Notes: generated from the sequence alone by a model not told the origin. A stretch of DNA of 64,000 nucleotides from Bdellovibrionales bacterium (GCA_965203785.1 OZ241911.1:548109-612108), one strand, 5' to 3'. Numbered from the stretch's first letter, positions 6,787 through 60,766 are shown. Numbers and translations: made by a program.

Positions 6787-7815
6787 TCAAAGCATAATAA
6801 AGATTTCGTCAACAATTTTTAATTTTTCTCTTAAAAACATTAATTTTTCGTTTTTTAATGTTATATCTCTTTCAACTTGGTTAGTAATAGGTGAATGAGA
6901 ATCTTGTGCTTCTTTTTTTTCTTTAATAAGTCCTAAAAGGAGACGTTTTGTATTATCTATTTCTGTTTGTATTTTATTTGTTTGATCCATTAAATAATCT
7001 ATTTGCTGATCTTTTGTATAGCTTTTTTTTAGTTTCTCAATGAGAGTTTCAGCGTAACGTTGGAGTTGTGGAATAGCTTGTAATTTTGTAAGAGCATGTA
7101 GTTTTGAATTTTCTTCTAATTTGAGTGATTCTTTTGTTTCTATATTTTGATTCATGTGTGGTTCTTGCTCTGTGTTTGTTTGTGTATTAGGTTCTGGTTG
7201 ATTTTCTTTTTCTTTTATTTGTTCTACTTCTATTTTTTTATTCACATCATCTGGTTTTTTTTGGTTTTCTTTTTCTATAATGGCATTAACTCTTTGACTA
7301 ATTACATACAAGGCAATATGCCCTAATACTTTTTGTGTCCCTCTGGTTGTTTTAGATAAGAGATCAGTTCCAGGATAGTGGAGGTTTAAAAAGTCGTTCC
7401 ATTCTTTTTTTGTCTGATCTAAAGATTCAGCCCGGGTGGCTTGAACAACCATATTGTTTTTTCTCTTTTCTTTTTCTGCATGTATCCAATCAGGTAACCA
7501 GTATTCTTCAGATTCTTCTATCCATTTTTCAGATTTGTGTATCCATGTATCATTTTTTGTAGAGAATTTATTCACTAGATTTTTTACAAGTATGAGAAGT
7601 TTTCTTAATTTATTTCGATAGTAGTTTTTTGGCTGGTCTAAGTATAGGTCTGGTGCAGAAAATGCTTTTTTACATTCTTTTGTCACTCGCTCGGATACTC
7701 GTTTCGATAAAGGTGGTTTATGATCAGGATTGACATTATCGGCAACAGCGTGTGTTGACACTAAACAAAATAGACATAAAGTTACAGCTCTTGTCAAATT
7801 TTTATAAGTGATCAT
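6787..7815 (-). CDS. Secreted coiled-coil hypothetical protein with CxxxF motif
   Basis: Signal peptide (..THAVA|DN), ECKKAF, helical K/E/Q-rich body; GGAG RBS. Confidence 0.75.
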   Translation of the reverse strand: MITYKNLTRAVTLCLFCLVSTHAVADNVNPDHKPPLSKRVSERVTKECKKAFSAPDLYLDQPKNYYRNKLRKLLILVKNLVNKFSTKNDTWIHKSEKWIEESEEYWLPDWIHAEKEKRKNNMVVQATRAESLDQTKKEWNDFLNLHYPGTDLLSKTTRGTQKVLGHIALYVISQRVNAIIEKENQKKPDDVNKKIEVEQIKEKENQPEPNTQTNTEQEPHMNQNIETKESLKLEENSKLHALTKLQAIPQLQRYAETLIEKLKKSYTKDQQIDYLMDQTNKIQTEIDNTKRLLLGLIKEKKEAQDSHSPITNQVERDITLKNEKLMFLREKLKIVDEIFIML

Positions 7816-8013
7816 TTTACATTGACTCCTTTAGATTAATAGATTAAATCGGTTCCTTAATTTAATTGTATTAAAAAATATTTATTTTTTTTAACAGCAT
7901 TTCTCTAACAATGCAACTACCATTAATTAAAGTAAGGTGAATACAAAATCAAACGATAAATAAATTGCGTGTAATTTTTACAATTTTTTATTTTTCCCCC
8001 ACTTTTTTAATTT

Positions 8014-8033
8014 ATTCTTGCCATTTTAATTGA
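8014..8033 (+). promoter_or_regulatory. Conserved upstream motif shared by the 8157 and 9599 genes (copy 1)
   Basis: ATTCTTGCCATTTTAATTGA versus ATTCTTGCTATTTTAATTGA at 9474-9493 (19/20 identical); contains a -35-like TTGCCA. Confidence 0.45.
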
Positions 8034-8156
8034 TGGAATGTATTTTTTTATAAAAAAATAAGAATTAAGTTTGTTTTTAAACTTAAAATTCTTAAATTTT
8101 ATTTTTTATTTCAAACGATATTTGTTTAAATAATTTGATCTCTAGGGGGGTTTGTT

Positions 8157-9347
8157 ATGAAGTATTTTTCTAGTTTATTGTTTATTATGTTGTTAGTTTT
8201 TTCGGCATTTAGTTTTGGAGAAGATGTCGAACCCAAAGGTTTATCTAAAGGTTTTAGTAACTCAGTAAAAAATTTTAAAGCTTCATTAAGTGCAAAAGGT
8301 GCCTCGTTGAAGCAAAAAGGTCAAAATTTTAAGCAAGTTTGCAGAAAATCTTTTGGCATCGATTTTATTGCTAATCAGAAACAAAAAAGAAATCAAAAAA
8401 AACAACAAAAAATGGAAAAATTGCGTATTGAAACCAATTTACGGATGAGCTACAGGGACGATCCAAGTTTACATTTGATTTGGGATCAATATTTAAATCT
8501 TCAAAATCAAGTTGATATCAAAAATAATATGTTGACTCAAGTGAGACTAACTCCCAATCTCTCTGATTCCGATCTCTCTCATGTGGCTTCTCTAAAAATA
8601 GAAACATTAGAAAGAGTACTCGAAGAAGCTAAAAATAATTTATCTTCTTTTGAAGCTGAATTTAGTGTGGAACTCAGTAAGATCAAACCTCTACATGAGA
8701 AATATAAACAATTTACTTCTCTTCAAAAGATATATGATGATTATAATAATTTGATTAAAAAGTATGACGACATTCATGTTACTGATTCGACAATATTAAA
8801 ATTTATTGGGTCTAAAATTTCGGAACGCAAACAATATATTCAAAAATTAACAAAAAAATTAGACAATCTTGTACAAAAAAAGCACAATTTAAAATTGGAT
8901 ATAGAGCTTGTCAAACAAGCATTGTTTTTAGAAGAACTCAACTTGCAAGATATTAAACGGTTAATCGGTTACAATGTGGATCCAAATTTGATTAAACAAA
9001 ATAATGACACTCAATTCTTTCAAACTTTTCATTTTCTTTTTTCAGCTATTACAACAAAAAAAGCAGCTATTACAACAAAAGAAGAAAAACCTGATGGTCA
9101 ATTTAACCAGTTAGAGGATCAGAATAAAACTTCCTCTGTAGAAGAACAGGAGATTGATATCAGAGAACAAGAAAGAGAACAAGAAAGAGAATGGGATGAA
9201 GAAAAAAAATTGGATGAAAGGTTTGAAAGAGAAGAGGAAGCAGATAGGTTAAAGGAAGAAAGGTTAGCAAAAGAAGAAGATGAAAGGTTAAACAGAGAAA
9301 GAGACAAACAATCAGGGAAAGAAATAGTAATAAGAGAAGAAATATAA
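8157..9347 (+). CDS. Secreted coiled-coil hypothetical protein with CxxxF motif
   Basis: Signal peptide, VCRKSF..FIANQKQK, E/R-rich C-terminus. Confidence 0.8.
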   Translation: MKYFSSLLFIMLLVFSAFSFGEDVEPKGLSKGFSNSVKNFKASLSAKGASLKQKGQNFKQVCRKSFGIDFIANQKQKRNQKKQQKMEKLRIETNLRMSYRDDPSLHLIWDQYLNLQNQVDIKNNMLTQVRLTPNLSDSDLSHVASLKIETLERVLEEAKNNLSSFEAEFSVELSKIKPLHEKYKQFTSLQKIYDDYNNLIKKYDDIHVTDSTILKFIGSKISERKQYIQKLTKKLDNLVQKKHNLKLDIELVKQALFLEELNLQDIKRLIGYNVDPNLIKQNNDTQFFQTFHFLFSAITTKKAAITTKEEKPDGQFNQLEDQNKTSSVEEQEIDIREQEREQEREWDEEKKLDERFEREEEADRLKEERLAKEEDERLNRERDKQSGKEIVIREEI

Positions 9348-9473
9348 ACTTATGAAAAAGCTTATTTAGCTACCGTAAAAATTAAACATTATTGTTAATA
9401 ATATAGTGACCTAGTGTAAAAATTTCAATTCATTGTAAAATTTTCACTATTGTTTTAGATTCTTTTGTAAGAT

Positions 9474-9493
9474 ATTCTTGCTATTTTAATTGA
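9474..9493 (+). promoter_or_regulatory. Conserved upstream motif (copy 2)
   Basis: Matches 8014-8033. Confidence 0.45.
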
Positions 9494-9598
9494 GAAAGTA
9501 TAAAGAAAAGTATTAAAGAATTGAGGAATATAAAAAAACAAGCTTGTTGTTTTTAAAGCTTAGTTACAAAATGAGTTATTTTTAGGAGGTTTATTGTT

Positions 9599-10612
9599 AT
9601 GAACTATTTTTCTATTTTATTATTTGTTTTGTTAATTTTTTCAGCATCTGGTGCGGTTATCCCTCCTGGAGGAGAATTTGGAGAACCAAAAGGTTTCAGT
9701 CATTCACTAAAAGCAACAAATCAAAAGTTTAAGACAGGTTGCAGAAAAGTTTTTAGCATGGAGTTTATTGCTAATCAGAAACAAAAAGCTAGAAGTCAAA
9801 TACACAAACTTCAGAGAGCGAGACAAAGAATTAATGCTAAAGTTGTTGCTTATGCTAGAATTCATTCTGTGGATAGAATTAATTTGAGAGCTAGAGTTAA
9901 TGCCATTTTGGCTAGAATGAATGCTCGACAGAAAGAAAAGGGAGTAACAACAGATATAAAGCAACTAGCATCTAAAGAAAAATTTATAAAAGCTCTTGAA
10001 GACATACAATTACAATTTGAAGACATACAATCACAAATAGGTGTAAACAAAGAAGTAGCACAAGAAGTACGATTACAAATAGATAATATAGTTCAAAAAA
10101 TAACACAACAAGTGGAAGCAACACACCAAGAGGTAACACACCAAGAAGCAGTGCAACCTGTTGTAGTTGATAAAAAAGTAGAAGCTAGTGTATCTGAAGA
10201 TGCATTGGTTAATGAGCAAAAAACATCAGATGATATAGTCCAACAAGTGGAAGCAAACAAAGCAGAAGAAGTAAATGATTCATTAGAAATTAATATAATA
10301 CCAGGTGATGAAGTAGAAATTACACTGACCCCAGATGGTGAATTGACAACTGAAGTAAATAAAAAAAGTAACAAACCAAAACAAGAGCATGATAGCAGTG
10401 GCAGATGGAAGAGTAAATCAACAAGTAAAAAAAATAAAGAAGCCACCGGCAACAAGTCCAAGTCACCTCAATCAGCTAAAAAAAGCAAACCAAAAAACAA
10501 GAAAGATCAAAAAGCCAGTAAAACAGATCAAAAGAAGAAAAAGATTAAGCAAACAGAAAATCAGGAGGAAATATACTCACCTAAGTCAGCAATTGATATG
10601 GAACTTGGATAA
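9599..10612 (+). CDS. Secreted hypothetical protein with CxxxF motif; N-terminus paralogous to the 8157 gene
   Basis: AGGAGG RBS, signal peptide, GCRKVF..FIANQKQK, Lys-rich tail. Confidence 0.8.
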   Translation: MNYFSILLFVLLIFSASGAVIPPGGEFGEPKGFSHSLKATNQKFKTGCRKVFSMEFIANQKQKARSQIHKLQRARQRINAKVVAYARIHSVDRINLRARVNAILARMNARQKEKGVTTDIKQLASKEKFIKALEDIQLQFEDIQSQIGVNKEVAQEVRLQIDNIVQKITQQVEATHQEVTHQEAVQPVVVDKKVEASVSEDALVNEQKTSDDIVQQVEANKAEEVNDSLEINIIPGDEVEITLTPDGELTTEVNKKSNKPKQEHDSSGRWKSKSTSKKNKEATGNKSKSPQSAKKSKPKNKKDQKASKTDQKKKKIKQTENQEEIYSPKSAIDMELG

Positions 10613-13761: not shown

Positions 13762-13771
13762 AAATCATTTA

Positions 13772-18041: not shown

Positions 18042-19142
18042 ATGAAAGTAATACTTTTTGTTAGCTTATTAATTATTGGTTCTTTTGCGTCTGCTAATTG
18101 TAACGAGCAGTTTGAAAATTTAAAAACTTTAAAAGATGAAGATTTACGAGATAGGGATTTACGAAATAGGGATCTACGCGGTTTTGATTTACGCGATATG
18201 GATTTAGAAGGTTTTGATTTACGAGGTGCGAATTTAAGAGATGCGATTTTAAAAAGGGCAGATTTGACAGATGCGAATTTACAAAGGGCACAATTGAGAG
18301 ATGCAGATTTAGAAGATGCGATTTTAAAAAGAGCAAATTTGAGAGATGCGGATTTACAAGGTGCGATTTTGACAGATGCGGATTTACAGTGGGCGAAATT
18401 ACAAAAGGCAGATTTGAGAGATGCGAATTTACAAAGGGCAGATTTGAGAGATGCGATTTTACAAAGGGTGATTTTACGAGATGCGGATTTGAGAGATGCG
18501 AATTTACAAAGGGCAGATTTGACAGATGCAAATTTACAGAGAGCGAAATTACAAAAGGCAGATTTGACAGCTGCAATTTTACAAAGGGCGGATTTGACAG
18601 CTGCAATTTTACAAAGGGCGATTTTGAAAGGTGCGAATTTACAAAGTGTACTTTTCATAAATGCAGATTTAAAAGGTATAAATTTGGAATATGCGAATTT
18701 ACAAAGGGCAGATTTGACAAATGTGCTTTTACAGTGGGCGATTTTACAAAGGGCGGATTTGACAGGTGCGATTTTGATAAGGGCAGATTTGACAGATGCA
18801 GATTTACAGAGAGCAAATTTACAAAAGGCGGATTTGACAGGTGCGATTTTGATAAGGGCAGATTTGAGAGATGCATATTTAGAAGATGCGAATTTACAAA
18901 AGGCGGATTTGACAGATGCGAATTTACAAAGGGCAGATTTGACAAATGCGATTTTACAAAGGGCGATTTTGAAAGGTGCGAATTTACAAAGTGTACTTTT
19001 CCAGGGTGCAGCTTTAGAAGCTATACATTTGGAAGATGTGAATTGGAAAGGTGTAAATTTGCAAGGTGCAATAGTTTCAGAATACCAAGCAGAGTGGTTA
19101 AAACTACGAGGTCATTCTCATTCTAATCTGACTGTTAAATAG
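18042..19142 (+). CDS. Secreted pentapeptide-repeat protein with CxxxF motif
   Basis: Signal peptide (ASA|N), NCNEQF, dozens of A(D/N/I)Lxx pentapeptides (15-nt periodicity). Confidence 0.95.
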   Translation: MKVILFVSLLIIGSFASANCNEQFENLKTLKDEDLRDRDLRNRDLRGFDLRDMDLEGFDLRGANLRDAILKRADLTDANLQRAQLRDADLEDAILKRANLRDADLQGAILTDADLQWAKLQKADLRDANLQRADLRDAILQRVILRDADLRDANLQRADLTDANLQRAKLQKADLTAAILQRADLTAAILQRAILKGANLQSVLFINADLKGINLEYANLQRADLTNVLLQWAILQRADLTGAILIRADLTDADLQRANLQKADLTGAILIRADLRDAYLEDANLQKADLTDANLQRADLTNAILQRAILKGANLQSVLFQGAALEAIHLEDVNWKGVNLQGAIVSEYQAEWLKLRGHSHSNLTVK

Positions 19143-19490: not shown

Positions 19491-22400
19491 ATGAATCAAA
19501 TTTGGAACTTAAGAGTTAGTTTTTTTATATTAATAGGTTCTTGTTGGTTTCTTTTTGTATCGTGTTCTTTTTTATTTACAAACTCTAACCCATTGGGGAA
19601 CAGGCGAGGTATTTCTAGTGCTTTAGAGGATCATTCTAATTTTATTGTAGATGAAATTAAAGGTCAGGTGTTGGCTACTCGTTTGAACGGGGTGCCAGAA
19701 GAAGTTAAAATTTCTTATAAAGCATGTTTTAGAGAAGTATTTCAAACTGAAAATCCTCTGCCAAATACCTTATTTAAAGTGCATTTGTTTGAGTCCGGTC
19801 ATTCTGCAGATAATTCTAAAAAAGTGGGCAATCCACAGACTGTCAATCAGGATAATCAAAAAAAATCATCTTCTGCTGATTTATGTAGAGAAAGTTCTGA
19901 GTTTGTTTTTTCTGATAAAACTAAACCTTCTTGTTTAAAGCTTCGCACAGATGCCAATGGTTGTTTGACTTGGGCGGAGTTTTATTCTTTTCCGGCTATT
20001 AATCAATCGGTGTGGTTTGGTTATCAAAGAGCTTTTGAAGGCACTGGTATTTACGCAGGGAAGACAGTCGTCAACTTGGCTGTTAATCCTTTGCTTTCCA
20101 TTTTCTCAATGAGTTCAGATATGTCTTTGGTAGATTTACGGTATCACTCGGAGTATCAAAAACGGAACTTTGTTCGTCTGAGTAAAAAAAACTCTCAAAT
20201 ATGTTCTAATTGTATCCATCAACCGGCTAGTTTATCTGCTGTAGTCGATTATTTTTCAAAAACTCAAAACCGACTTCCTCGTTTATGGTTAAATGAAGTT
20301 TATGTCAATGTCAGTCAGGAGTTATTTCCCTTAACACAATCGAGTAAAAGTCAGCAAAAGCTTCTTCAAGATTTTAAAGTTTGTGTTCCTCATTCTAAAA
20401 GTTCGTGTAAAGATCCTCCTGGTCGATTTTTTAAAGTACAATTAGAGATGCCTTTAAAAATTCGGATCAAAGACCATAGAGGAGCTTCCAAGTTAGTCGC
20501 CTTAACTCATGGAAAATATTTGGTTAAACCCTATTTGTTTCTCCAAAGTGATCGAGGGGAGAATTGGTCTCTGCATCGGGATGTTCAATCTGTGTCTGCA
20601 GATTTGATTCAAGGTTCTGATCAGACCACTTTACGTGCTGATTTTTACCTCCATGTTCCTTATGAACGCTATGGAATTCCCATTTTATTAGGTTTGAAAG
20701 TTCAACCGTCTGGTGGGTCTCATGCATCTAATTTTTTGACATTTGAAGGAGTATTTTCTTTTCCAGATCATTTAAGCAGTGTGATTGGTAGTCAAACCTT
20801 AAAATTGGATCATAAGACGATTGCTTTTTATAAAAACTCCAACTCTGCATTGGGTTCTTTTATAGATACTTATCAGCTGTCTATGGATCCCAGAAAAAAT
20901 AGAGGAAGAAAAGGATTTCGCAAGGCAAGTTGGGATATTGAATTGCGACGGTTTCGTTTTTCGGACATTAGTTTAGAAGAAGGGAAGTGTCCAACACCGG
21001 TTGGTCGTTATGTTCGCTATGTGGGTGAAATATGTATTGTCGACCCTCTCACCAGAAAAACTATTCCCAATACTTCGATTGTGATTAAGCGAAGTGAAGT
21101 CAATTTTGATAAAGCGGGGCAAGTGTTGTTAGGACCAGCTACTGAAATTAACAAAATAGCAGAAGACGATCGATTTGATAGGGAAAGTTTTTCTATTAAA
21201 GGTCAGAGAGAAAATTTATCTGGTGAGAAAGAAGGTTCGACTTTATTTTATAACTCAGATGCAACAGGTTGTTTGCGTTGGATGGATAATTTATATCACA
21301 CTTGGTATGACCGAGAGCGATATTTTGTTCGAAAAATGATTTTTTCTATACCAGAGCTTGGTTTTGAAGGTGAAAAAATGATCGCAATTAACCCTTGGCA
21401 CTGGGGTTTTGTGTTCTTTCAAGACATTACTCAATTGGGTTCATCTTCTGTCCGTGTTAATCCTCAACGGGCCGAGCGTCCTCGTTTAGTATTACATGAT
21501 TTTAGAAGTATGTTTGTTAATCCAGTCTATGCAATCGATCGCTTATTAGGTATTAATATTTTTCAAAATCTGTTGTTTTTATTTCGAACACGAATTGATC
21601 GACCGGGAAATATCACCACTGGTTTTGGAGGGCAGAGACCATCTTCTATGGATATTAGAAGAGGATATTATTGGTTAAGATTTATATTGGTCAAAGCTCA
21701 TACAGAAGAGCAAGGCGGACAAGGTAATTTAGTAGTTAAAACAGAAGATTATATTAAAAATCACTACACTCAATCGAGTAATTTTAACTGGAACGATCAT
21801 GTTGCCGGTTGGGTATTAGATCGAAATGGTCATCAAACAGGTCAAATGATGAATACTCGCTTAGAATACATCACCCACTTTGATACTTATACGCAAATTA
21901 GAGATAGCACAGTGAATGCCTATATCAATTTTATTTTCAACTTAGATCAGTTTATTTTTATCGGATCTAACAATCGAGTGATTGTCCAACTGTTGCCAAC
22001 AAATCCGAAATATTATGTGTATCGTGAGGGGACTTGTGAAATTAATCCATCTCGTACTCAATTTATGCCTTTTACACAACATGAGTTAATTACCCGACCT
22101 TTTATGGGAACTTTTGTCCCCGGCGACAGAAGAAATTGGAATATTTTTAGGGTGTTGAGTACAGATTCTCATTCTCAGTTATCTAATAATTTTTTAGAAA
22201 ATCAATTATTAGCTTTAGATATGAAACATACAAACTCTTTAATTAATTATGGAAAAAAACACAGCAAAGAGCATAAATTGTTTTTAAAATTACAATCTCT
22301 ATTGAATATTAAAACTCAAAATTGGTCTGAAACTCCTCTGTTAGCTGTTAAAGATGGAATTAATATTCTCGAACAACTGTATCAATATATGGGAAAATTC

Positions 22401-24824
22401 TCACAATCTACTATTGATTCAGATCAGTTAGTGGAAGTGATTCATCAAACGAATCAATTTTTAACCAAGGCACTCAGTGGTTCTCATTTGCATCAACGAG
22501 TATCCACTTTTCTATCACAAATATCGATTTTGTTAAAAAATCTTTTACCCAAATTGTTAGAGTCTCAAAAAATAACAAATTCAAACTTAAAAAAATCAAA
22601 CTCAGATCTTAAAAAACAAGTTGCTCAAATTCGAAAAGAATTAACAAATTTGATCAATCAACAATTAGCTCATCCAGAGTTAGAAGACTCTTTAAAATCT
22701 TTCACTTTACAAAATTCTAAACCTCCAGAACAAAATAAAACAGAAGATGCTTGGGTTTTTCATTCTCTGACGGATTCTTATAAAAATCAAAAACTTAAAC
22801 CTTGGACAAAAAAAATAGATTCTTCATCAGAGACAGATCCTTCTTTTTTATCAGGGGCTAATATGAATCACTTTGCATATAACGAGGGTTTAAAAGTAAT
22901 TGCCATGGACAATCATAAAGTCGCTCAAAATTTTATAAGCGATTTAAATCACTTATCTAATAAATACAACACACAGTATTCATCTTTTCTCGATGTTTCT
23001 AGTGGAAAACCTTTTAACGAGCAAGTGGCACAATCTATTATTGAATTGAGAGAAAACCAAGCAGAAAATCCATCCAGTGAAACTCAATGGTGGGAGTCTT
23101 TTAAACAAAAAAATAAAGAAATTAGAAATAATTTTCCATTAGAAGATAAAGATAATTATGTGTCTTTTGTTAGAAAAAATAAGCAAATGTATTTACCACC
23201 TTTTTCTTCGGAGTGGTTAAGAACTGTTTTAACAGACGGTGTTCATGCTGGAACAATCGATACGCCAGAAGTGATGACTTTTTTGCATTCCATGTGTTTT
23301 TTCTGGTTCGAAAAATTTTATGACGAATACTTAGAACAAGATCAAATCGATGTTTTAAGACTCAAGCATATTGAATATTATGACTATTATAAAAGCACTT
23401 TGGAGTATTTAAGATCAGAAAGTCACATGGATCAATATAAAAAACTACTCCAATTACAACATGAATATTTTTTAGAAGACTTATCTGAAAATTTTGTAAA
23501 AAAAGAAAATCCATTTTTTGTCTATCCATCTGATTTAATTGGTTGGAAACTCGTAAAAAGAATTCAAAATGCGATAAGCGGTTTTTTTACTAACCAAAAA
23601 GAATCTATTCAGCAAAAAAAATCTATTCAGCAGACAAAAGTTAATGTTGTGGAATCTCTTTACGGCAAAATTCGTGAGCAATATGATAGAGAAATGGCTG
23701 GTTTGCCTTTAATGAGTCATTTAATTAACCCGATGAATATTTACAACCGTATAGAGGGAAAACATCCTTTTTTTAAATGTGTAGCTAATCCATTAAATTT
23801 TTTTCATTTAGAATCAAAGGTGATTGTTGGAGATATTAGTTCTCGTTACGAAGATTTAACTTATGAGTATGGGCAAACTCGGTCGTTAAATGTTCAGACT
23901 TCGTATGATTGGGCTTATGGAGTGAATTGGGCTATGTCGGTTGGTTTTTCTGGTTCGACGGGGACGGGTGTAGCCGTATTGGGTGGTTTAGGTGATTGGA
24001 TTCCTTTTAAATGGGTTAATAGTTTATTTACTTTTGCTGGCATTCGTGGGGATGTTGCTTGGAACACAACTCGTTCGGATGCAGAAAGTAGCCGAAGACA
24101 AATGTCTTTGCGTGTGGCTAGAACATTGTATTTGACTTTGAATCATTCTGTATTTTCTATTGGGCTTTCTCATTTTCGTCGATGTTTAGTTATTCGTCCT
24201 AAAAATTTAGCATTTGAAGGATATTCAGAAGATGATCAAATATGGAAAAAGAAATGGGCTAATAATTTTATGCGACAAATTTTATTTATTAAGTCTGGTT
24301 TATTAATTTGTTCAGAAAATATTCATGTTGGGGAAAACGACCCTCCAGAAAGAATTTTAGAAGATTATTTTTATATTTATCAACCATCTCCAGGGGATCA
24401 AGGGCAGTTTCAAAACCCTCTGAATTTTAGAAATCGTCCTTATGTCATTACTGTTCGAGGGATTACAGAGCTAGAAAAGTTAGAATTTTTGTTTCATTCT
24501 TTTGTAGAACCCAACCAAACTCCTGGTGTAGAAGACTACAATCCAGAACGACCAATGACTAACTTATTTTATCGACATCCAAAAATGATGGATGGGATGA
24601 GACGAGCTGTTAAACAAGCAAAAGTGTGGGATAAAACGGGTTTTTATCCAGGAGTTTACAATGTTAAATATAGCGAAGATCATCACTACTTTCGCGATCC
24701 CAAGCATCAAGCAAAAGGTGTATTAGAAAAATTTGGAGATTGGCTAACCAACAACAATCCATTAAATTTAATACGGATGGGAACGGATGAACAACCGATC
24801 TTAGACAAACCGAGTCGTCAATAA
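19491..24824 (+). CDS. Giant putative lipoprotein (1777 aa), unknown function
   Basis: Hydrophobic N-terminus with lipobox-like FVSC; internal repeat TDANGCLTW / SDATGCLRW; beta-rich segments. Confidence 0.75.
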   Translation: MNQIWNLRVSFFILIGSCWFLFVSCSFLFTNSNPLGNRRGISSALEDHSNFIVDEIKGQVLATRLNGVPEEVKISYKACFREVFQTENPLPNTLFKVHLFESGHSADNSKKVGNPQTVNQDNQKKSSSADLCRESSEFVFSDKTKPSCLKLRTDANGCLTWAEFYSFPAINQSVWFGYQRAFEGTGIYAGKTVVNLAVNPLLSIFSMSSDMSLVDLRYHSEYQKRNFVRLSKKNSQICSNCIHQPASLSAVVDYFSKTQNRLPRLWLNEVYVNVSQELFPLTQSSKSQQKLLQDFKVCVPHSKSSCKDPPGRFFKVQLEMPLKIRIKDHRGASKLVALTHGKYLVKPYLFLQSDRGENWSLHRDVQSVSADLIQGSDQTTLRADFYLHVPYERYGIPILLGLKVQPSGGSHASNFLTFEGVFSFPDHLSSVIGSQTLKLDHKTIAFYKNSNSALGSFIDTYQLSMDPRKNRGRKGFRKASWDIELRRFRFSDISLEEGKCPTPVGRYVRYVGEICIVDPLTRKTIPNTSIVIKRSEVNFDKAGQVLLGPATEINKIAEDDRFDRESFSIKGQRENLSGEKEGSTLFYNSDATGCLRWMDNLYHTWYDRERYFVRKMIFSIPELGFEGEKMIAINPWHWGFVFFQDITQLGSSSVRVNPQRAERPRLVLHDFRSMFVNPVYAIDRLLGINIFQNLLFLFRTRIDRPGNITTGFGGQRPSSMDIRRGYYWLRFILVKAHTEEQGGQGNLVVKTEDYIKNHYTQSSNFNWNDHVAGWVLDRNGHQTGQMMNTRLEYITHFDTYTQIRDSTVNAYINFIFNLDQFIFIGSNNRVIVQLLPTNPKYYVYREGTCEINPSRTQFMPFTQHELITRPFMGTFVPGDRRNWNIFRVLSTDSHSQLSNNFLENQLLALDMKHTNSLINYGKKHSKEHKLFLKLQSLLNIKTQNWSETPLLAVKDGINILEQLYQYMGKFSQSTIDSDQLVEVIHQTNQFLTKALSGSHLHQRVSTFLSQISILLKNLLPKLLESQKITNSNLKKSNSDLKKQVAQIRKELTNLINQQLAHPELEDSLKSFTLQNSKPPEQNKTEDAWVFHSLTDSYKNQKLKPWTKKIDSSSETDPSFLSGANMNHFAYNEGLKVIAMDNHKVAQNFISDLNHLSNKYNTQYSSFLDVSSGKPFNEQVAQSIIELRENQAENPSSETQWWESFKQKNKEIRNNFPLEDKDNYVSFVRKNKQMYLPPFSSEWLRTVLTDGVHAGTIDTPEVMTFLHSMCFFWFEKFYDEYLEQDQIDVLRLKHIEYYDYYKSTLEYLRSESHMDQYKKLLQLQHEYFLEDLSENFVKKENPFFVYPSDLIGWKLVKRIQNAISGFFTNQKESIQQKKSIQQTKVNVVESLYGKIREQYDREMAGLPLMSHLINPMNIYNRIEGKHPFFKCVANPLNFFHLESKVIVGDISSRYEDLTYEYGQTRSLNVQTSYDWAYGVNWAMSVGFSGSTGTGVAVLGGLGDWIPFKWVNSLFTFAGIRGDVAWNTTRSDAESSRRQMSLRVARTLYLTLNHSVFSIGLSHFRRCLVIRPKNLAFEGYSEDDQIWKKKWANNFMRQILFIKSGLLICSENIHVGENDPPERILEDYFYIYQPSPGDQGQFQNPLNFRNRPYVITVRGITELEKLEFLFHSFVEPNQTPGVEDYNPERPMTNLFYRHPKMMDGMRRAVKQAKVWDKTGFYPGVYNVKYSEDHHYFRDPKHQAKGVLEKFGDWLTNNNPLNLIRMGTDEQPILDKPSRQ

Positions 24825-28014: not shown

Positions 28015-28668
28015 TTGAGTAGGGCAATGTATATAAGAATTTTGCAAATTGGTATTCGGTTGGTGTGTTTTTTAATTTGTTGTTTAGGGTCATCTTTTTT
28101 TGTGATTGCAGAAGAATTTTCTTTTTGTAGAAGAGCATTTAATTCTATGGTTTTTAAAATTCAATCCATTCAAAAACAAGTAGAAGAAAATCAAAAACAA
28201 AAGCGTATAAAATTTATTCAAGAAAGAGATCGAGCAGTTTTGTTGAATAATATTAATAATATGAGTGATAGTATAGATCGAGAAAATAAAAAAAGAGATA
28301 TTATTATTGCATTTTTTACATTTTATGTAAATTTCGATATATTACCAAAGCAGTATTCAGAAAAATTTTCTAAATTAACAAATGGACACTTGTTAGATAT
28401 GAATAAGAAAGCTCAGGATCGGATGGATTTGATAAATAAAATAGATAATTTAAGATCTCAAAAAAGTATGACACTATCTGATAAAAACCAATTAGTAGCA
28501 CATACTAATCAATTATTTAGAATGTATTATCATTTAATAGAGGGGCATAAAAATGAACTTCAAATGGTTAATCGTCAGTTAGAATATTTTATAGAAGAAA
28601 CTAAAGATTACTTTTTATTACCGGTTGTTTTAGATTTTAAAAAAAATCAAATCACTTATCGAAAATAA
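28015..28668 (+). CDS. Secreted helical hypothetical protein with CxxxF motif; paralog of 41405
   Basis: Signal-like segment, FCRRAFN; shares LPKQYSEKF, NRQLE, YFLLPV with 41405. Confidence 0.8.
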   Translation: MSRAMYIRILQIGIRLVCFLICCLGSSFFVIAEEFSFCRRAFNSMVFKIQSIQKQVEENQKQKRIKFIQERDRAVLLNNINNMSDSIDRENKKRDIIIAFFTFYVNFDILPKQYSEKFSKLTNGHLLDMNKKAQDRMDLINKIDNLRSQKSMTLSDKNQLVAHTNQLFRMYYHLIEGHKNELQMVNRQLEYFIEETKDYFLLPVVLDFKKNQITYRK

Positions 28669-31597: not shown

Positions 31598-33120
31598 TTA
31601 TTTTTTTTACCATTATTAATGGTTTTTTTAATTATCTTCCAATAGCCAGCTTTATCAGAACCCATTCTTTTTAGTATTCCTTGTTTCTTTAATTTTTCTA
31701 AATGATATTTAATACCATCAACAGTTATATCTTTAATTTTTACTGATATTTTTTGTCTTGTAATATGAGGATTTTTCTCAATCAAATTTAAAATCTGGGT
31801 AGTTTTCTGGGTAGTGTTTTGAGTAGCTTTCTGAGTAGCTTTCTGGGTAGCTTTCTGGGTAGTTTTCTGGGTAGTTTTCTGGGTAGTGTTTTGAGTAGCT
31901 TTCTGGGTAGTTTTCTGGGTAGTGTTTTGAGTAGCTTTCTGGGTAGTTTTCTGGGTAGTTCTTAAAGGAAGTATCTTTTTGAAAGTAACACTATAAAACA
32001 TGTTATCATGTTGAATTTTAAGTTTAATTTTCTTTTTATGTTTTACAAGAGCTGATTTGATACGTTTGATTCCTGTTCCTGCTTTTTCTATGTAATTAGC
32101 TCTATGTAACATGGAAGCAATCAGAAGGTTACGAGGTACACTTTTAGTTCCAAAGTTTTTTGAGCTTAAACCGCTAGGTAATCCTCCTGGATTATAGATT
32201 TCTACCCTATCAGAATACACTTCTATAACAACATGGCACCTTCTTTCAAAATAATCTCTATGGCAAACAGCATTTACAATTGCTTCTCTTAAAGCGGTTT
32301 CAGGATAATCTGGAATTTCTTCTCTACGAGGTTTGCCGGTAATAACATACTCTGTATTTGTGTGTCTCTGTACGAAAGACAAAGAATTTTCAATATTTTC
32401 TATAATATTTCCCTTATATTGCTTCCTATCTAAAATTTTAACTTTATCTTTATCTTTAAATAACAAACAGTCCACAAGAGCATAGTTCATAATAAAATCT
32501 ATATCTTTAGAAAAAAACAATACACCTAAGTTTGTTAATTTTTTATCAGATGTTAAACAGTCAAGATTTTGCAAAAGAATATCCTGGTTAATTATGGAGC
32601 TAATTTTTGACAGCTTTAAAAAATATTTGAAAGCTTTTGAATCAAAATCTTTTTTAAAATCAGCTTTTGTATTAACTAATTCTCCAAAATTAACTCTACC
32701 TTCTTTTTTAAAAAAATTAATAATTTCATCTCTTGTCATTTTTTGAGAATTTGCTCCTACTCTCATAAAAAAACCTCTGGAACATCCATAAGGTTTTTCT
32801 TCACCTTCAGGAACATAAATAACAATAAGATTATTTTTCACTTCAACAGATATATTTAGCTTAGGTTGTAGTTTTTGCACTATATCTTGAATTTTAGAAC
32901 GCATGCGGTTATTTGTATCAATACCTTTAACTGTTCCATCATCAGCTACTCCCATTATAATGCGACCGCCTGATGAATTAGCAAAGGCACAAACTGCATC
33001 AATAAGTGACTTATCTAAGGTTTGTTTAAATTCTGTACGGTATCCTTCACCTGTTAGAATAAAGTTTTTAATATCTTTATCAATTATATTGATACTATTT
33101 TGTTTGTTATTTTTTTTCAT
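31594..33120 (-). CDS. Schlafen/AlbA_2 - HATPase-like - wHTH protein
   Basis: GEGYRTEFK, AFANSSGG..MGVADDG, ALREAIVNAVCHRDY, NPGGLP, PRN, EKAGTG, C-terminal wHTH (LKRMGSDKAGYW). Confidence 0.88.
   Translation of the reverse strand: MKKNNKQNSINIIDKDIKNFILTGEGYRTEFKQTLDKSLIDAVCAFANSSGGRIIMGVADDGTVKGIDTNNRMRSKIQDIVQKLQPKLNISVEVKNNLIVIYVPEGEEKPYGCSRGFFMRVGANSQKMTRDEIINFFKKEGRVNFGELVNTKADFKKDFDSKAFKYFLKLSKISSIINQDILLQNLDCLTSDKKLTNLGVLFFSKDIDFIMNYALVDCLLFKDKDKVKILDRKQYKGNIIENIENSLSFVQRHTNTEYVITGKPRREEIPDYPETALREAIVNAVCHRDYFERRCHVVIEVYSDRVEIYNPGGLPSGLSSKNFGTKSVPRNLLIASMLHRANYIEKAGTGIKRIKSALVKHKKKIKLKIQHDNMFYSVTFKKILPLRTTQKTTQKATQNTTQKTTQKATQNTTQKTTQKTTQKATQKATQKATQNTTQKTTQILNLIEKNPHITRQKISVKIKDITVDGIKYHLEKLKKQGILKRMGSDKAGYWKIIKKTINNGKKNK
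31792..31959 (-). repeat. 14 x 12-bp in-frame tandem repeat encoding (T/A)TQ(K/N)
   Basis: ACTACCCAGAAA and variants; recurring higher-order unit TTQK-TTQK-ATQN. Confidence 0.95.
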
Positions 33121-35237: not shown

Positions 35238-35308
35238 TTTTTCTCCATAATGTTTAATGTGTTAGCATTATTACATATTTATTAGTATTTTTGTATGAAA
35301 TTTATATA

Positions 35309-37618: not shown

Positions 37619-37797
37619 AAATTTTGACCTTTTTGTTCAATGTAAAAATCTGAAAGTAAATTCCAATCTTCAGCAGATACTTCACCTAAAGATAATTTTT
37701 TTATCCATTCCTCTTTTTTATTCTCAAGGAGTAGTTTTGATTTTAAAAGTTTTTCTACAACTCTTTTTGCTACAATATTATCTGGTTTATCACTCAA
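37615..37797 (-). CDS. Small helical protein coupled between the SNF2 and ATPase genes
   Basis: TTG start directly abuts the SNF2 stop; its stop overlaps the ATPase ATG (ATGA). Confidence 0.7.
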   Translation of the reverse strand: MSDKPDNIVAKRVVEKLLKSKLLLENKKEEWIKKLSLGEVSAEDWNLLSDFYIEQKGQNL

Positions 37798-41404: not shown

Positions 41405-42148
41405 ATGAAATCGATTCTAAATAATAGAATATATTTTACTATAGATAAGATAATATCTATCAAAAAGCAAATATCGAACATTATTGTGTATTTGGCGTAC
41501 TCCCTTGTTTTTTGTTTAGGATCTTCTTTGTTTGTTGTTACAGTAGCAACAGCAGAAGAGTCTTCTTTTTGTAAAAAAGTATTTAATTCTGTAGTTTTTA
41601 AAATTCAATCCGTTCAAAAACAGAAAGAAAAACAAAAAGAAGAAAAACAAAAACAAGCAGAAGAAAACGAAAAACAAAAACGAATAAAATCTATTCAAGA
41701 GCGAGATCGATTAGAATTAGTAATAAGTATTAATAATCAACTAAATAGACTAGTTTTAGAGAATAGGGTCCAAGCTGGCATTTTTTCATTCTGGGAGACT
41801 TATGCAAATTTTGATAAATTACCAAAGCAGTATTCAGAAAAATTTGATAAGTTTATAAATCAATATATATTACATACGCGTCAGACAGACAAAGAGCAGA
41901 AGGATTTAATAGATAAAATAGAGCATTTACAATCTCAAAAAAATATGACATTAGCGGATGAAAATCAATTAACATCAAATCTTAATCAGTTGTTTAGGGT
42001 GTATTATCGTTTAATGGACAATCACACAAATTTACTTCAAATGACTAATCGTCAGTTAGAAAATTTGATAGAAGAAAGCAAGGAGTATTTTTTACTACCA
42101 GTTGGTTTAGATGTTCCAAAAAATCAAACCACCTATCGAAGAAAATAA
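41405..42148 (+). CDS. Secreted helical hypothetical protein with CxxxF motif; paralog of 28015
   Basis: AGGAG RBS, signal-like segment (ATA|EE), FCKKVFN, shared blocks with 28015. Confidence 0.8.
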   Translation: MKSILNNRIYFTIDKIISIKKQISNIIVYLAYSLVFCLGSSLFVVTVATAEESSFCKKVFNSVVFKIQSVQKQKEKQKEEKQKQAEENEKQKRIKSIQERDRLELVISINNQLNRLVLENRVQAGIFSFWETYANFDKLPKQYSEKFDKFINQYILHTRQTDKEQKDLIDKIEHLQSQKNMTLADENQLTSNLNQLFRVYYRLMDNHTNLLQMTNRQLENLIEESKEYFLLPVGLDVPKNQTTYRRK

Positions 42149-42159: not shown

Positions 42160-42236
42160 TGGTCGGACCGACTGGATTTGAACCAGCGACCTCCACCACC
42201 CCAAGGTGGCACGCTACCAGGCTGCGCCACGGTCCG
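42160..42236 (-). tRNA. tRNA-Pro(GGG)
   Basis: CGGACCG acceptor stem, anticodon arm CCACC-TTGGGGT-GGTGG, GGTTCAAATCC T-arm, encoded CCA. Confidence 0.95.
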
Positions 42237-43174: not shown

Positions 43175-43252
43175 GGCGGTCGTAGCTCAGTTTGGTAGAG
43201 CACCAGATTGTGGATCTGGTCGTCGCGGGTTCAAGTCCCGTCGATCGCCCCA
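43175..43252 (+). tRNA. tRNA-His(GTG)
   Basis: G-1, GCGGTCG/CGATCGC acceptor stem, anticodon arm CCAGA-TTGTGGA-TCTGG, C discriminator, CCA. Confidence 0.95.
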
Positions 43253-55553: not shown

Positions 55554-55560
55554 AAATATC

Positions 55561-57170: not shown

Positions 57171-57180
57171 AGGAACACCC

Positions 57181-58437: not shown

Positions 58438-58567
58438 AGTTATTAATTGATTGAATTTTAGTCAAAAGTGTATTTTTTACATTTTGAACTGTATTTATTT
58501 TAATAATTTTTGTGCATTATTTTAGTATCAGTTTTTACTATTAGTATCAATTGTTATTAAAAAGGTC

Positions 58568-60766
58568 ATGCATATTATGAAACTAAAAAAACTATTTTTT
58601 TATATATTGTACATGTTTTTGTTATACACAATCAACGGACATTATGTCGTAGGGGCAAGTACTTGCCAAAATATTTTTAGTTCAGATAATTTAGCAAAAT
58701 CAGATACAAAAGATATCACTTCTTCAGATCTAAAGTTTTCTATAGATTCTTTTATTCAAAAGATGACTCAAACTTTTATTCAAAAGATGACTCAAAATTT
58801 ACTGTTACATGAAAACCAAGTTGATTTATTGCGTTTTTATATATTGCGTTCTTTTTCTTCAGGTGAGTTGATTACAGTATTGGATCCTCGTTTATTTGTA
58901 ACATTATTTGACACTTTAAAACGATATCCTCATTTGTCTAAACCAATGGTAAGAGAGCAAATAATTAGTTTTTATGATATACAACCTAATAAAGACCGTT
59001 CGGTACCAAAAGAACTCATCGATTCTATTAGTTCGTTTAAAAAAACATCCAGCCAATTAAGAAACAATCTTTTTCAGATAGAAGCGAATTATGGTTTTTG
59101 GATAAAGTTATTAAATTTTCCACTATTAGAGCTGGAATCGACTTTAAATAAAAAAGAACAACAATTACAAAAACAGGAGTATAAAAATCAATTTATTAGC
59201 TATTTAGATACGACAGCATTAAATAAAGACACAAGGGAGATTATTAAAAATCCTGATCTGGGCTATAAAGATAGAACATTTATATTATACAAAGCTTTAA
59301 ATGAGATTAAACAATTGGTTTTATCTAAAACAGATGATAGTGAGTCTTTAAAAACAGCTCAAAAAATATCGCAAGCTATGGCAGAACTCATTCACACATC
59401 AGGTTTTGGCAATCAAAACTTAGTAAAGTTATTAAATAATAATAGCTATGAAGATAAAGTGCAAGCTGTGGATAAAATACTTAATGAGCGAGAAGCAATG
59501 GCACAAGAATTAGGTTTCGGTTTCACAGATTTTTTAACACTTAAAACTCATTTAAAAGCTAACATAGCTAATGTAGAGGATAAATTAAAAATGTCAAAAG
59601 ATATTCATAAAGAAGTTATATATTCTGAAAATGAATTAACTACATATAGGTTACGATCTCTTTCTATTCAAGAATCCCCTTTTAGATCTTGTTTAAGTGG
59701 AGACTGTGCGTCTCGGACCTATTTTGGAAAAGCTTTAGACCCTAATTATCTTTATTTTACTTTAACAGATAAAAATAATAAATCATCAGGTCATGTGACT
59801 GTTGTTTTAGGGGAGTCCGAAAACCATAAATCTATTAAAGTTCGCACAGCTTTTATAGATAAAATACAAGCAGTAGCTGAAGAACATTTATCAGCTATGT
59901 TAGAGGGTATTCGCTTAAGCCTTAAAGAAATAGGTTATGAGTTAGCTCTTCCTGTTGATATAGGTTCGGTGAATGGTTTATCTAACCAAGAAGGCATACA
60001 AAATTCAATTAAGAAAATACTACCTACTTTACAAAATAAATTAGAAAATTTTACCCCTCATTACCATGACTATGTATTTCCAGATGGCTTTTCAAGAGCT
60101 CATGCTCGATTAACTCTTTTGAGAGTAGAACATCTTAATGTAAAAGATGCAAAAATTCAAAAAGGGGAATTATTTGATGTTTACTATGATGAAACATTCA
60201 GTAAATCAGATCTAGAATCTCTTGTATCTTTAAGATATTCTGAAAAAGAAACTGATCAAAGGGAATTTGTAAAATCTTTGTTTGTTTTAATCGATATTCC
60301 GGGTACTCAGATTCTAATTACTGAGTCAGATGCCATTAATCATTTATATAATATTATACGAAATACAAATTTCTCTTTTCTTTTTAGAAAACAAGTTTTT
60401 TTTCAGTTTATTCAATTTATTGAATCTCATAATATGGACTCTATTATACTCCCTGACTATGGATTGATGGAATATGATGATATACACAGCGTGATATTTT
60501 TAAAGCAAGTTACTTTGTCATTTTCTGAGAAAGAAATTCATTCTATTATAGGTGAAATGAGTAATTGGAAAACATCTTTAGGTTATAGAGAAGATTTTGT
60601 CAACCAATTAAAAAAATCAAAGACTAGTCATTATGATTTTAATAAAATGAAAGCATTGGTAAAATCTCAGTGGTATCCTCTTTTAGGGAAAGACGATATA
60701 GAATATATGAGAAATGTAAGATTTAATAGAGTGCTGAAAAGTAGTGATGTTAAATCACGTTTATAG
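58568..60766 (+). CDS. Large secreted hypothetical protein with CxxxF motif
   Basis: Signal-like N-terminus, ASTCQNIF; central SPFRSCLSGDCAS..Y block. Confidence 0.75.
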   Translation: MHIMKLKKLFFYILYMFLLYTINGHYVVGASTCQNIFSSDNLAKSDTKDITSSDLKFSIDSFIQKMTQTFIQKMTQNLLLHENQVDLLRFYILRSFSSGELITVLDPRLFVTLFDTLKRYPHLSKPMVREQIISFYDIQPNKDRSVPKELIDSISSFKKTSSQLRNNLFQIEANYGFWIKLLNFPLLELESTLNKKEQQLQKQEYKNQFISYLDTTALNKDTREIIKNPDLGYKDRTFILYKALNEIKQLVLSKTDDSESLKTAQKISQAMAELIHTSGFGNQNLVKLLNNNSYEDKVQAVDKILNEREAMAQELGFGFTDFLTLKTHLKANIANVEDKLKMSKDIHKEVIYSENELTTYRLRSLSIQESPFRSCLSGDCASRTYFGKALDPNYLYFTLTDKNNKSSGHVTVVLGESENHKSIKVRTAFIDKIQAVAEEHLSAMLEGIRLSLKEIGYELALPVDIGSVNGLSNQEGIQNSIKKILPTLQNKLENFTPHYHDYVFPDGFSRAHARLTLLRVEHLNVKDAKIQKGELFDVYYDETFSKSDLESLVSLRYSEKETDQREFVKSLFVLIDIPGTQILITESDAINHLYNIIRNTNFSFLFRKQVFFQFIQFIESHNMDSIILPDYGLMEYDDIHSVIFLKQVTLSFSEKEIHSIIGEMSNWKTSLGYREDFVNQLKKSKTSHYDFNKMKALVKSQWYPLLGKDDIEYMRNVRFNRVLKSSDVKSRL
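58749..58796 (+). repeat. Perfect 24-bp tandem duplication (in frame)
   Basis: CTTTTATTCAAAAGATGACTCAAA x2, giving FIQKMTQ twice. Confidence 0.95.

Follow-up and report, generated by a model that had tools for sequence, protein, structure and literature searches.

A short motif, a cysteine followed at +4 by phenylalanine (C-x3-F), was found on approximately 30 Sec-exported proteins of a Bdellovibrionales bacterium, corresponding to about 8-10% of its predicted secretome. In most of them it lies near one end and supplies the sole Cys. The combined results support the conclusion that C-x3-F is a real, selected and lineage-restricted tag on exported proteins that are otherwise unrelated, and from its sequence context it looks like an undescribed tethering or sorting signal. 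No published description of the motif was found in literature searches. A sequence-only reading of a 64,000-nucleotide stretch of this genome (the window) had proposed C-x3-F as an N-terminal tag that marks a repertoire of effectors. Its lineage restriction and its presence on unrelated proteins were borne out, and the tag lies outside every Pfam and NCBIfam model. The purely N-terminal placement was not, because half of the genomic copies lie at the very end of the chain, as in ...GETCKKVF* and ...NNSCQKIF*. A signal read only beside a signal peptide therefore cannot explain the tag.

We confirmed the seven tagged ORFs of the window, each having a predicted Sec-type signal followed by C-x3-F. 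Signal peptides were predicted by a crude home-made n/h/c-region heuristic that flags 512 of the 1346 ORFs of the genome, and the mature positions given here follow a simple -3/-1 rule for cleavage. The first gene (6787..7815, minus strand) encodes a coiled-coil-like protein of 342 aa with no family match. With cleavage predicted after AVA, mature residue 23 is the only Cys left in the chain, and it starts the tag C48-K-K-A-F52 (ECKKAF; 7660..7674, minus strand, from codon positions counted from the ORF start). The other six tagged genes of the window are on the plus strand. Two adjacent genes encode a 396-aa coiled-coil or charged protein (8157..9347; tag C62-R-K-S-F66, VCRKSF, 8340..8354) and a 337-aa protein without a family match (9599..10612; tag C48-R-K-V-F52, GCRKVF, 9740..9754); each has a single Cys in its entire chain, at mature positions 46 and 29, respectively. 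A 366-aa pentapeptide-repeat protein (18042..19142; PF00805, E 1.3e-89) carries C20-N-E-Q-F24 (NCNEQF; 18099..18113), where the Cys is either mature residue 2 or the residue directly after a lipobox-like ASAN. Three paralogs elsewhere in the genome have CNEQF or CNDQF. Proteins of 217 aa (28015..28668) and 247 aa (41405..42148) are paralogs with 56% identity, and both have the tag Cys at mature position 6: C38-R-R-A-F42 (FCRRAF; 28126..28140, with the TGT codon at 28126 in repeat D4) and C56-K-K-V-F60 (FCKKVF; 41570..41584). Finally, a globular protein of 732 aa (58568..60766) carries C33-Q-N-I-F37 (TCQNIF; 58664..58678) with the Cys at mature position 4. The tag Cys was the sole mature Cys in six of the seven proteins, the exception being this last protein with three. 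Flanking genes are of the housekeeping kind (riboflavin, spermidine, Mur ligase, CysS, type IV pilus and FabZ genes), as had been noted. The earlier view that the protein bodies are unrelated apart from the pair at 28015 and 41405 needs a correction: the proteins at 8157 and 9599 are related, with a similarity (43% identity, E 2e-8) confined to the signal and tag in their first 72 and 58 residues, respectively.

To quantify the association genome-wide, 149 Cys cases were collected from 101 signal-bearing proteins with one or two mature Cys. Phe was at +4 in 29 of these cases when 7.5 were expected (p=3.5e-10), whereas all other offsets from -8 to +8 were flat. The cytoplasmic, non-secreted control showed Phe at +4 in 6 of 186 cases. 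When each of the 88 BLAST families in the set was represented by one random member, the excess persisted (22.1 of 130 versus 6.5 expected, p about 6e-7). Enrichment was strong in this offset-specific test and weak in a wider one that accepted C...F anywhere within 63 residues past the signal (29 observed versus 19.2 +/- 3.9 in shuffled sequences, 2.5 sd). BLAST grouped the 33 candidates into 21 families. A cause at the DNA level, such as an A-run, a T-run or a slippery site, was discarded: Cys and Phe stay constant, but the codons of the three residues between them differ freely.

Among the 29 motif copies in the low-Cys exported proteins, 13 were near the mature N-terminus, 13 were in the last 30 residues and 3 were in between. 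Their consensus is [ST]-C-[KRQ]-[KRN]-[VIA]-F-[ST]. The same preference for the ends was seen in the 47 exported proteins with a single Cys, of which 19 have it among the first 50 residues, against 10.0 expected, and 13 among the last 30, against 6.0 expected. N-terminal tags usually start at mature residues 2-7. In C-terminal tags, Phe is 0-10 residues and Cys 5-15 residues from the end, and no hydrophobic or transmembrane segment follows. Polarity is higher in the linkers adjoining the tag (0.62-0.64) than in the protein bodies (0.50-0.53). An AlphaFold model of one carrier had pLDDT of 49-57 at residues 28-60 and >90 from residue 61, and the predicted structure for the 58568 family had pLDDT below 50 at residues 28-61. 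These models place the tag outside folded domains, in segments predicted to be flexible. All Pfam and NCBIfam matches of the carriers fall in passenger domains; no model covered the tag in the seven window proteins (Pfam and NCBIfam), in 22 further carriers searched against Pfam or in 11 searched against NCBIfam at E up to 1. The passengers include HEAT, pentapeptide and coiled-coil proteins, an ankyrin-bearing family and an alpha/beta hydrolase, in agreement with the earlier suggestion of an effector-like repertoire, as these are repeat-type, effector-like or adhesin-like proteins. A comparable arrangement in the same bacterial order is found in the Bdellovibrio MAT fibre proteins, many surface proteins in which a common module directly follows the signal peptide; this conserved N-terminal domain is thought to bind a cell-surface element (PMC10769870). 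That module is a beta-rich domain of ~130 aa rather than a motif of 5-7 residues, and the main text of that report does not use the word 'cysteine'.

The tag was retained in homologs. In the family of a 1019-aa hydrolase, 69 of 86 homologs had a signal followed by C-x3-F with a nearly invariant Phe at +4, and in 61 of these 69, with lengths of 623-1306 residues, the tag Cys was the only Cys; Cys makes up 1.47% of residues genome-wide. The 58568 family had the tag in 18 of 21 loci, and C33 and F37 were invariant in 15 aligned homologs. Homologs in other species have extra C-terminal ankyrin repeats. A fold search with the model of this family had no match with an E-value of 0.001 or below and showed only a weak likeness to GNAT acetyltransferase folds, over about 190 residues. 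All six members of a 650-aa HEAT family end in C-x3-F; the remaining matches of its profile search were generic HEAT proteins. A homolog search with another HEAT carrier, of 449 aa, found only the query itself, and a repeat-protein family at C1:161643 has just five members. The tag was also kept in ortholog pairs with 30-54% identity. This pattern indicates purifying selection on Cys and Phe and against any further Cys.

Small-genome relatives of Bdellovibrio are barely studied and known only from metagenome-assembled genomes. The analysis sampled 200-400 kb from each of nine relatives. Tags were seen in G000, G008, G016, G027 and further genomes of the genus, and none in the sampled DNA of G015, G021, G025 and G028. 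Genomes of the genus are reduced (1.3-2.3 Mb). The 3.0-Mb G027, which belongs to another family, had two tags in 200 kb, and one candidate was found in the 4.2-Mb genome of G017.

Gene neighbourhoods and genome searches revealed no dedicated enzyme or partner for the tag, and a proteome-wide scan for C[KRQ][KRN]xF found no membrane-anchored hub protein with the motif. The genome encodes a type II secretion system. When neighbours of 45 tagged genes from ten genomes or samples were compared, only the gspG-M pseudopilin operon recurred. This was the case in G000 and G008, where a C-terminally tagged HEAT gene directly precedes gspG. In 12 further genomes, gspG was preceded by gspF in 10 and by an untagged HEAT gene in one, with one case unclear; gspF also precedes gspG in G005 and G025. 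The link between the tag and type II secretion is therefore weak. Oxidative-folding genes were present, namely a VKOR fused to a thioredoxin-fold domain (VKOR-DsbA), a DsbA-like lipoprotein and a TlpA-like protein. DsbB was not found in the genome, which has VKOR instead.

As a tentative best explanation, to which we give somewhat less than an even chance, C-x3-F may tether or sort exported proteins through its thiol, by forming a disulfide at either end of the chain. A tagged protein would be exported by Sec and then cleaved by signal peptidase I. Its flexible linker would hold the tag where it is observed, at the mature N-terminus or no more than about 10 residues from the C-terminus. There, the motif would form a short amphipathic turn that exposes one Cys, which shares its face with the +3 aliphatic residue and the +4 Phe, while the basic residues lie opposite. 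The sequence of this turn is observed, and a helix is predicted at low confidence only: in the AlphaFold model of a carrier with C36-F40, residues 33-40 form a helix over the tag at pLDDT of only ~50. In a periplasm with the VKOR-DsbA fusion and the DsbA-like lipoprotein, the lone thiol would be caught in an intermolecular disulfide with a carrier, an anchor or another tagged protein. Keeping the rest of the chain free of Cys would leave the tag Cys as the sole reactive thiol. The disulfide might then hold or route HEAT, pentapeptide, ankyrin-associated, coiled-coil or hydrolase passengers at the envelope or on the cell surface, from which reducing conditions could conceivably release them. 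Generic DsbA has little sequence specificity, and the strictly conserved +4 Phe would therefore need a specific reader.

A precedent for this mode of working is offered by the Mia40 docking signals (ITS/MISS) of the mitochondrial intermembrane space, in which a docking Cys on an amphipathic helix has hydrophobic residues 3 and 4 positions away. These signals may be upstream or downstream of the cargo, which is captured by a mixed disulfide that further Cys pairs resolve. The tag resembles them in its single Cys, its location on either side of the cargo and, by sequence, the hydrophobic pair of V, I, A or T at +3 and F at +4. The likeness is one of how the tag may operate. The Mia40 system is eukaryotic and organellar, and its substrates have extra Cys pairs, whereas the remainder of tagged proteins is free of Cys. 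No Mia40-like receptor was found, and the oxidative-folding genes found were all generic. It is possible, but in our judgement rather doubtful, that C-x3-F represents a new class of bacterial sorting signal: a lone docking Cys at either end, without a membrane span, that a putative thiol-reactive receptor or enzyme would read. In a host-associated branch of Bdellovibrionales, this reader would load, tether or translocate a repertoire of effector-like repeat proteins, as a prokaryotic counterpart of disulfide-relay targeting.

The alternative that survives best is a non-canonical lipid anchor, in which an enzyme that reads C-x3-F instead of a lipobox would acylate or lipidate the tag Cys at either end. 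The layout of the carriers, with a Cys at the extreme end, a polar flexible tether and then a domain, is indeed that of lipoproteins processed by Lgt, LspA and Lnt, where an invariant Cys near the end of the Sec signal is likewise shared by many unrelated exported proteins. Basic residues at +1 and +2 with hydrophobic residues at +3 and +4 would favour contact with the membrane interface. Lgt is present, in one copy, and this genome tolerates unusual residues before lipoprotein Cys, with N or D at -1 recurring in many lipoprotein-like signals. The four pentapeptide proteins have x-A-[ND]-C, similar to such relaxed boxes, and this sequence may be a relaxed lipobox; the earlier statement that the Cys lies outside a lipobox therefore applies to the tags generally, with a possible exception for the pentapeptide family. 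In contrast to a lipobox, the tag Cys is not preceded by [LVI][ASTVI][GAS], Phe is conserved at +4 and about half of the tags are C-terminal. The -1 residues of the seven window tags (E, V, G, N, F, F and T) do not match a lipobox, with the N of the pentapeptide protein as the possible exception. In the hydrolase family, where an A-x-A-type site comes first, the -1 position is occupied by R, N, F, D, T, E, K, S or other residues. Because a good A-x-A cleavage site and charged or bulky residues (E, D, K, Q, L, F and T) lie between the h-core and the Cys, processing by Lgt and LspA is unlikely.

Another Cys-based tag thought to be lipidated is MYXO-CTERM of Myxococcota. This short signature also has an invariant Cys and occurs, in each genome, on dozens of exported proteins that are otherwise unrelated; in PMC11980579 it is linked with the myxosortase MrtX and thought to lead to surface anchoring, with type II secretion as the export route. 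Here, by comparison, only 0-10 residues and no transmembrane helix follow the Phe, and N-terminal tags occur as well. The C-terminal tags thus have no membrane-embedded segment that would present them to a membrane enzyme. Furthermore, a CPBP protease (PF02517) of the cognate type was found in none of the 15 genomes of the genus, including G000 (92% complete), and in 6 of 31 relatives overall. With a single Lgt and no such protease, a lipid anchor appears unlikely.

A still less probable alternative is that the Cys staples dimers, with a disulfide between two copies or neighbouring paralogs that stabilizes elongated proteins and has no role in sorting. Many carriers are coiled coils or solenoids, one Cys per chain permits exactly one intermolecular bond, and adjacent tagged paralogs are common, as in the 8157/9599 pair, the four genes at C1:1254434-1259426 and three genes in G008. 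However, stapling would leave unexplained why the +4 Phe and the basic +1 and +2 residues are kept across 21 unrelated families, why the Cys is on a long flexible linker away from a dimer interface, and why a 1000-aa hydrolase and globular proteins carry the tag.

We regard it as improbable that the motif is read by a host. The carriers would then be effectors that enter a eukaryotic host or prey cell, whose enzymes would S-acylate or otherwise recognize the terminal Cys and thereby target the proteins to host membranes. The eukaryote-like passenger repeats (HEAT, pentapeptide and, in homologs, ankyrin) and the reduced genomes are consistent with such delivery, and the tag resembles usual S-acylation sites, which typically have a terminal Cys near basic or hydrophobic residues and function at either end. 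However, host S-acylation has no strict consensus, unlike the nearly invariant +4 Phe, and the tag extends to G027 and possibly G017, whose genomes are larger. We know of no route from the periplasm to the host cytosol in these bacteria. Some tags end exactly in C-x-x-x-F (CKKVF*, CQKIF* and CKNVF*), similar to a CaaX or extended C(x)3X box. A CaaX box has its Cys exactly fourth from the C-terminus, with two aliphatic residues next to it, whereas between 0 and 10 residues follow the tag, which is therefore not a CaaX box; its +1 and +2 residues are mostly K, R, Q or N, N-terminal copies exist and the carriers have Sec signals. Finally, a functionless origin, whether random, from AT-rich composition or from 5' gene segments of common ancestry, could draw on the 34% GC genome with its abundant K, F and N, on the several paralogous carriers and on the modest excess in the 63-residue test, but is hardly credible given that the enrichment is limited to +4 and to exported proteins and persists with one representative per family, that codons at the x positions are free while Cys and Phe are constant, that shared 5' segments cannot yield C-terminal copies and that homologs with 30-50% identity retain both residues.

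Known tags such as the lipobox, LPXTG, PEP-CTERM, GlyGly-CTERM, MYXO-CTERM and the type IX C-terminal domains have each led to a dedicated machine and made whole surface proteomes predictable from sequence. If C-x3-F is a tag of this kind, it would give the same predictive power for small-genome relatives of Bdellovibrio. In that case, functioning at either end without a transmembrane segment, it would also offer a compact means of displaying proteins covalently and perhaps redox-reversibly. In each genome of these bacteria, the tag points to about 30 proteins with eukaryote-like HEAT, ankyrin and pentapeptide repeats, the obvious candidates for contacts with a host or prey.

All seven ORFs singled out by the sequence-only reading (window starts 6787, 8157, 9599, 18042, 28015, 41405 and 58568) were present. 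Each begins with an n/h/c-type signal and carries C-x3-F at residues 48, 62, 48, 20, 38, 56 and 33, respectively, which places the Cys at mature positions 23, 46, 29, 2, 6, 6 and 4 by a simple −3/−1 rule. As had been proposed, the tag Cys is often the sole mature Cys (six of the seven proteins), and the neighboring genes in the window are housekeeping genes. The tag region matched no Pfam or NCBIfam model in any of the seven; the same search identified 18042 as a pentapeptide-repeat protein and gave no significant family for the other six.

The adjacent genes 8157–9347 and 9599–10612 share only their first 72 and 58 residues (43% identity), which comprise the signal peptide, a KGxS...FK linker and the tag with a FIANQKQK continuation; the remainder is unrelated, a sequence pattern that suggests exchange of a 5′ module. 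The tagged paralogs 28015–28668 and 41405–42148 (56% amino acid identity, 77–82% nucleotide identity in parts) flank a 12-kb low-GC stretch (28697–40677; 27% versus 33–36% elsewhere). This stretch holds a defense island with a type III restriction enzyme, a DNA methylase, a Schlafen/AlbA-HATPase protein, an SMC/AAA ATPase and an SNF2 helicase, adjoins tRNA-Pro (42160–42236) and tRNA-His (43176–43252), and resembles either an insertion into a tagged gene or a duplication around one. The Schlafen/AlbA gene (31594–33120, minus strand) contains a 12-nt tandem repeat at 31770–31984, with at least 12 registered copies of the units TCTGGGTAGTTT / TCTGAGTAGCTT. A 1777-aa ORF at 19491–24824 had no Pfam or NCBIfam match at E up to 0.01. 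Outside the window, the small contig C5 (41% GC versus 34% for the chromosome) carries three identical short ORFs (1620–1892, 4336–4608 and 7052–7324) spaced 2716 bases apart, which points to a tandemly repeated unit; C5 may lie on a different replicon from the chromosome.

The genome (1.48 Mb, 34% GC, 7 contigs), in which the window is C1:548109–612108, yielded 1346 ORFs with a simple home-made caller. A crude home-made hydrophobicity rule found signal-like N-termini in 512 of these, 380 without a further membrane segment; because the rule is over-inclusive, it would weaken any enrichment, not produce one. In the wide form of the shuffle control proposed with the original claim, the excess was weak (29 C...F within 63 residues versus 19.2 ± 3.9 shuffled). 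An offset-specific +4 test was strong. When 101 exported proteins with a mature part of at least 100 aa and one or two mature Cys were examined, Phe occupied +4 of Cys in 29 of 149 cases versus 7.5 expected (p = 3.5e-10), and the remaining offsets between −8 and +8 each gave counts of 5–10. The corresponding control, non-exported soluble proteins with one or two Cys, had Phe at +4 in 6 of 186. With one random representative per BLAST family (88 families), the excess persisted (22.1 of 130 versus 6.5 expected, p about 6e-7). Of the 93 proteins with the first Cys no more than 15 residues from the hydrophobic core, 15 had Phe at +4. When the pattern was tightened to C[KRQ][KRN]xF, the proteome had 25 occurrences versus 10.3 ± 3.1 after shuffling, and 17 of the 25 were at the ends of signal-bearing proteins.

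The motif had been described as an N-terminal tag. The N-terminal copies are real, but inspection of single-Cys exported proteins revealed copies at the very C-terminus as well, where chains end in GETCKKVF, NNSCQKIF, GRSCKNVF, ADTCKKVFSS, GISCEKIFNS, PSSCSKIFRKF, TSSCKKTFEK or SNTCQKPFKKRI. Low-Cys exported proteins carry 29 copies: 13 no more than 50 residues from the signal, 13 among the final 30 residues and 3 internal. Inclusion of copies missed by the filters gave 33 candidates in 21 BLAST families. The consensus is [ST]-C-[KRQ]-[KRN]-[VIA]-F-[ST]. Codons at the x positions vary freely, indicating selection on the protein. The passengers comprise HEAT repeats (six of seven C-tagged proteins tested), pentapeptide repeats (four), an unnamed family with repeats about 45 aa long (four), coiled coils, a 1019-aa alpha/beta hydrolase, a DUF6973 protein and several proteins without any match.

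N-terminal copies typically follow a good A-x-A-type cleavage site, with a spacer of one to six residues, acidic or polar for the most part, before the Cys (for example AIA/QDLC, AVA/DTC, VYA/DDC and SIA/NDC, slash marking cleavage); in three window genes 22–45 residues precede the Cys. In the 25-residue linkers between tag and body, the fraction of polar, disorder-promoting residues was 0.62 versus 0.53 in the body for N-tags (n = 18) and 0.64 versus 0.50 for C-tags (n = 22). An AlphaFold2 model of the hydrolase, built from a 60-sequence alignment of 59 of 86 homologs picked mostly among signal-bearing ones, had a mean pLDDT of 88.9, with 49–57 at residues 28–60 and above 90 in the domain from residue 61; a short helix spanning C36–F40 was drawn at residues 33–40 in the low-confidence region. 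The model of the family of 58568 likewise fell below 50 at residues 28–61. Linker polarity and low pLDDT around the tag indicate a free motif on a linker, outside any fold.

The tag was retained among homologs, although kin are not independent and homolog counts overstate independent events. In the family of 58568, signal and C-x3-F were kept in 18 of 21 loci from other Bdellovibrionales genomes, several being paralogs within one genome; the exceptions were L020 (no ORF found), L021 (CLEFY) and L024 (start unclear). An alignment of 15 sequences had C33 and F37 invariant amid 60 otherwise variable surrounding residues. Members of this family (58568–60766 in the window) also share an invariant core, QESPFRSCLxGDC...GH, and those of other species carry ankyrin repeats at the C-terminus. 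The model showed only weak likeness to GNAT acetyltransferase folds (TM-score 0.4–0.45 to the target over about 190 residues, E above 0.001). The family may be an acyltransferase-type effector. The hydrolase (C1:758939) had 86 homologs in a collection of 5.8 billion proteins. Of the 74 with a signal and nearby Cys, 69 had Phe at +4, and the other five had L (twice), S, C and T. The tag Cys was the only Cys in 61 of the 69 (lengths 623–1306 residues), where the genome-wide Cys frequency of 1.47% predicts about 15 per 1000 residues. With the 650-aa HEAT family as the profile, a search of 1.84 billion representatives recovered six true members, all ending in C-x3-F, and 143 generic HEAT matches, two with such an end. 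Ortholog pairs with G008 (same genus) or G016 (another genus of the family) kept the tag at 30–54% identity; variants were CEREM..., ending a G016 paralog, and CLIEL in a distant homolog from G017 (same family, 4.2 Mb).

Terminal tags on low-Cys exported proteins, counted in sampled stretches rather than whole genomes, numbered 10 per 400 kb in G008, 1 per 400 kb in G005 (same genus), 4 per 208 kb in G016, 1 per 400 kb in G017 and 2 per 200 kb in G027 (another family). The relative G025 had 1 per 400 kb, its Cys directly at the signal and lipoprotein-like, and the relatives G021, G028 and G015 had none in 200 kb each. Hydrolase homologs extended the tag to other members of the genus (matching G001, G004, G005 and G010), which has at least 15 species genomes of 1.3–2.3 Mb.

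C-x3-F fails the defining features of every known Cys-based tag. No Pfam or NCBIfam model covers it in the carriers searched, and its varying distance to the C-terminus rejects a CaaX box. The MYXO-CTERM tag includes a transmembrane helix with an Arg-rich tail and depends on a CPBP protease (PMC11980579); nothing hydrophobic follows C-x3-F, and PF02517 (CPBP protease) was found in none of 15 genomes of the genus. The tag is also distinct from the module at the N-terminus of Bdellovibrio MAT fibres, which is a beta-rich domain about 130 aa long (PMC10769870). Full-text literature searches, in which most subscription journals were missing, yielded no description of the motif, which does not prove its absence.

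A non-canonical lipid anchor at the tag Cys is the strongest rival, if an unlikely one. The tag is not a standard lipobox: charged or bulky residues precede the Cys after a signal-peptidase-I site, and C-terminal copies are excluded as Lgt/LspA substrates. The exception is four pentapeptide proteins (ASAN/C, ANAN/C, TNAD/C and VKAD/C), which may be lipoproteins because N, D or Q at −1 is common in lipoprotein-like signals of this genome, which encodes one Lgt. Such signals have N, D or Q for G, A or S before Cys (LLSN/C, FLTN/C, LLAD/C, FFMN/C and VFSQ/C; for example C1:1022374, 436447, 263156 and 843056), suggesting from sequence a relaxed lipobox in the lineage.

The genome encodes VKOR fused to a thioredoxin-fold domain, a DsbA-like lipoprotein and a TlpA-like protein, so that exported proteins meet an oxidizing periplasm; no DsbB turned up in the genome, which is 92% complete. 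VKOR and the DsbA-like thioredoxin domain (CPHC) form a single 394-aa membrane protein (C1:1021155–1022339). Also present are four secretins, including GspD with a GspC-like PDZ protein and PilQ with PilMNO, and a gspG-H-I-J-K-L pseudopilin operon, located apart from gspE/F here and in G008. A C-tagged HEAT gene is directly upstream of gspG in both genomes (L184, C1:1163001–1183000; L060, G008 C1:200001–220000), with three more after the operon in G008. In 10 of 12 other genomes, and in G005 and G025, gspF rather than HEAT precedes gspG; G006 has an untagged HEAT-like gene there. The link to type II secretion is weak.

The results show that C-x3-F is under selection as a terminal motif, sits on a flexible linker, provides the sole Cys of the chain and occurs on unrelated Sec-exported proteins of a cell with disulfide-forming enzymes. 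Strong selection for a lone exposed thiol, with other Cys purged, suggests use in covalent chemistry. On a helical turn, one face would carry Cys together with the aliphatic residue at +3 and the Phe at +4, opposite basic residues, a type of docking surface that thiol oxidoreductases bind. The closest known analogy is the Mia40 docking signal of mitochondria. We therefore favor, at somewhat below even chances, capture of the tag Cys by an intermolecular disulfide that would tether or route the passenger. The lone thiol might instead be a plain dimer staple, to which we give a rather small probability. Reading of the motif by host enzymes after delivery, for example by S-acylation, is less probable still; a host-associated or predatory lifestyle is judged only from genome size and domain content. 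That the motif has no function is scarcely credible. The leftover probability goes to mechanisms outside these.

A bolder reading, less likely than not, would make C-x3-F a new class of docking-cysteine signal. We file it, as a new form, with the known end tags that have an invariant Cys and serve to sort or anchor proteins.
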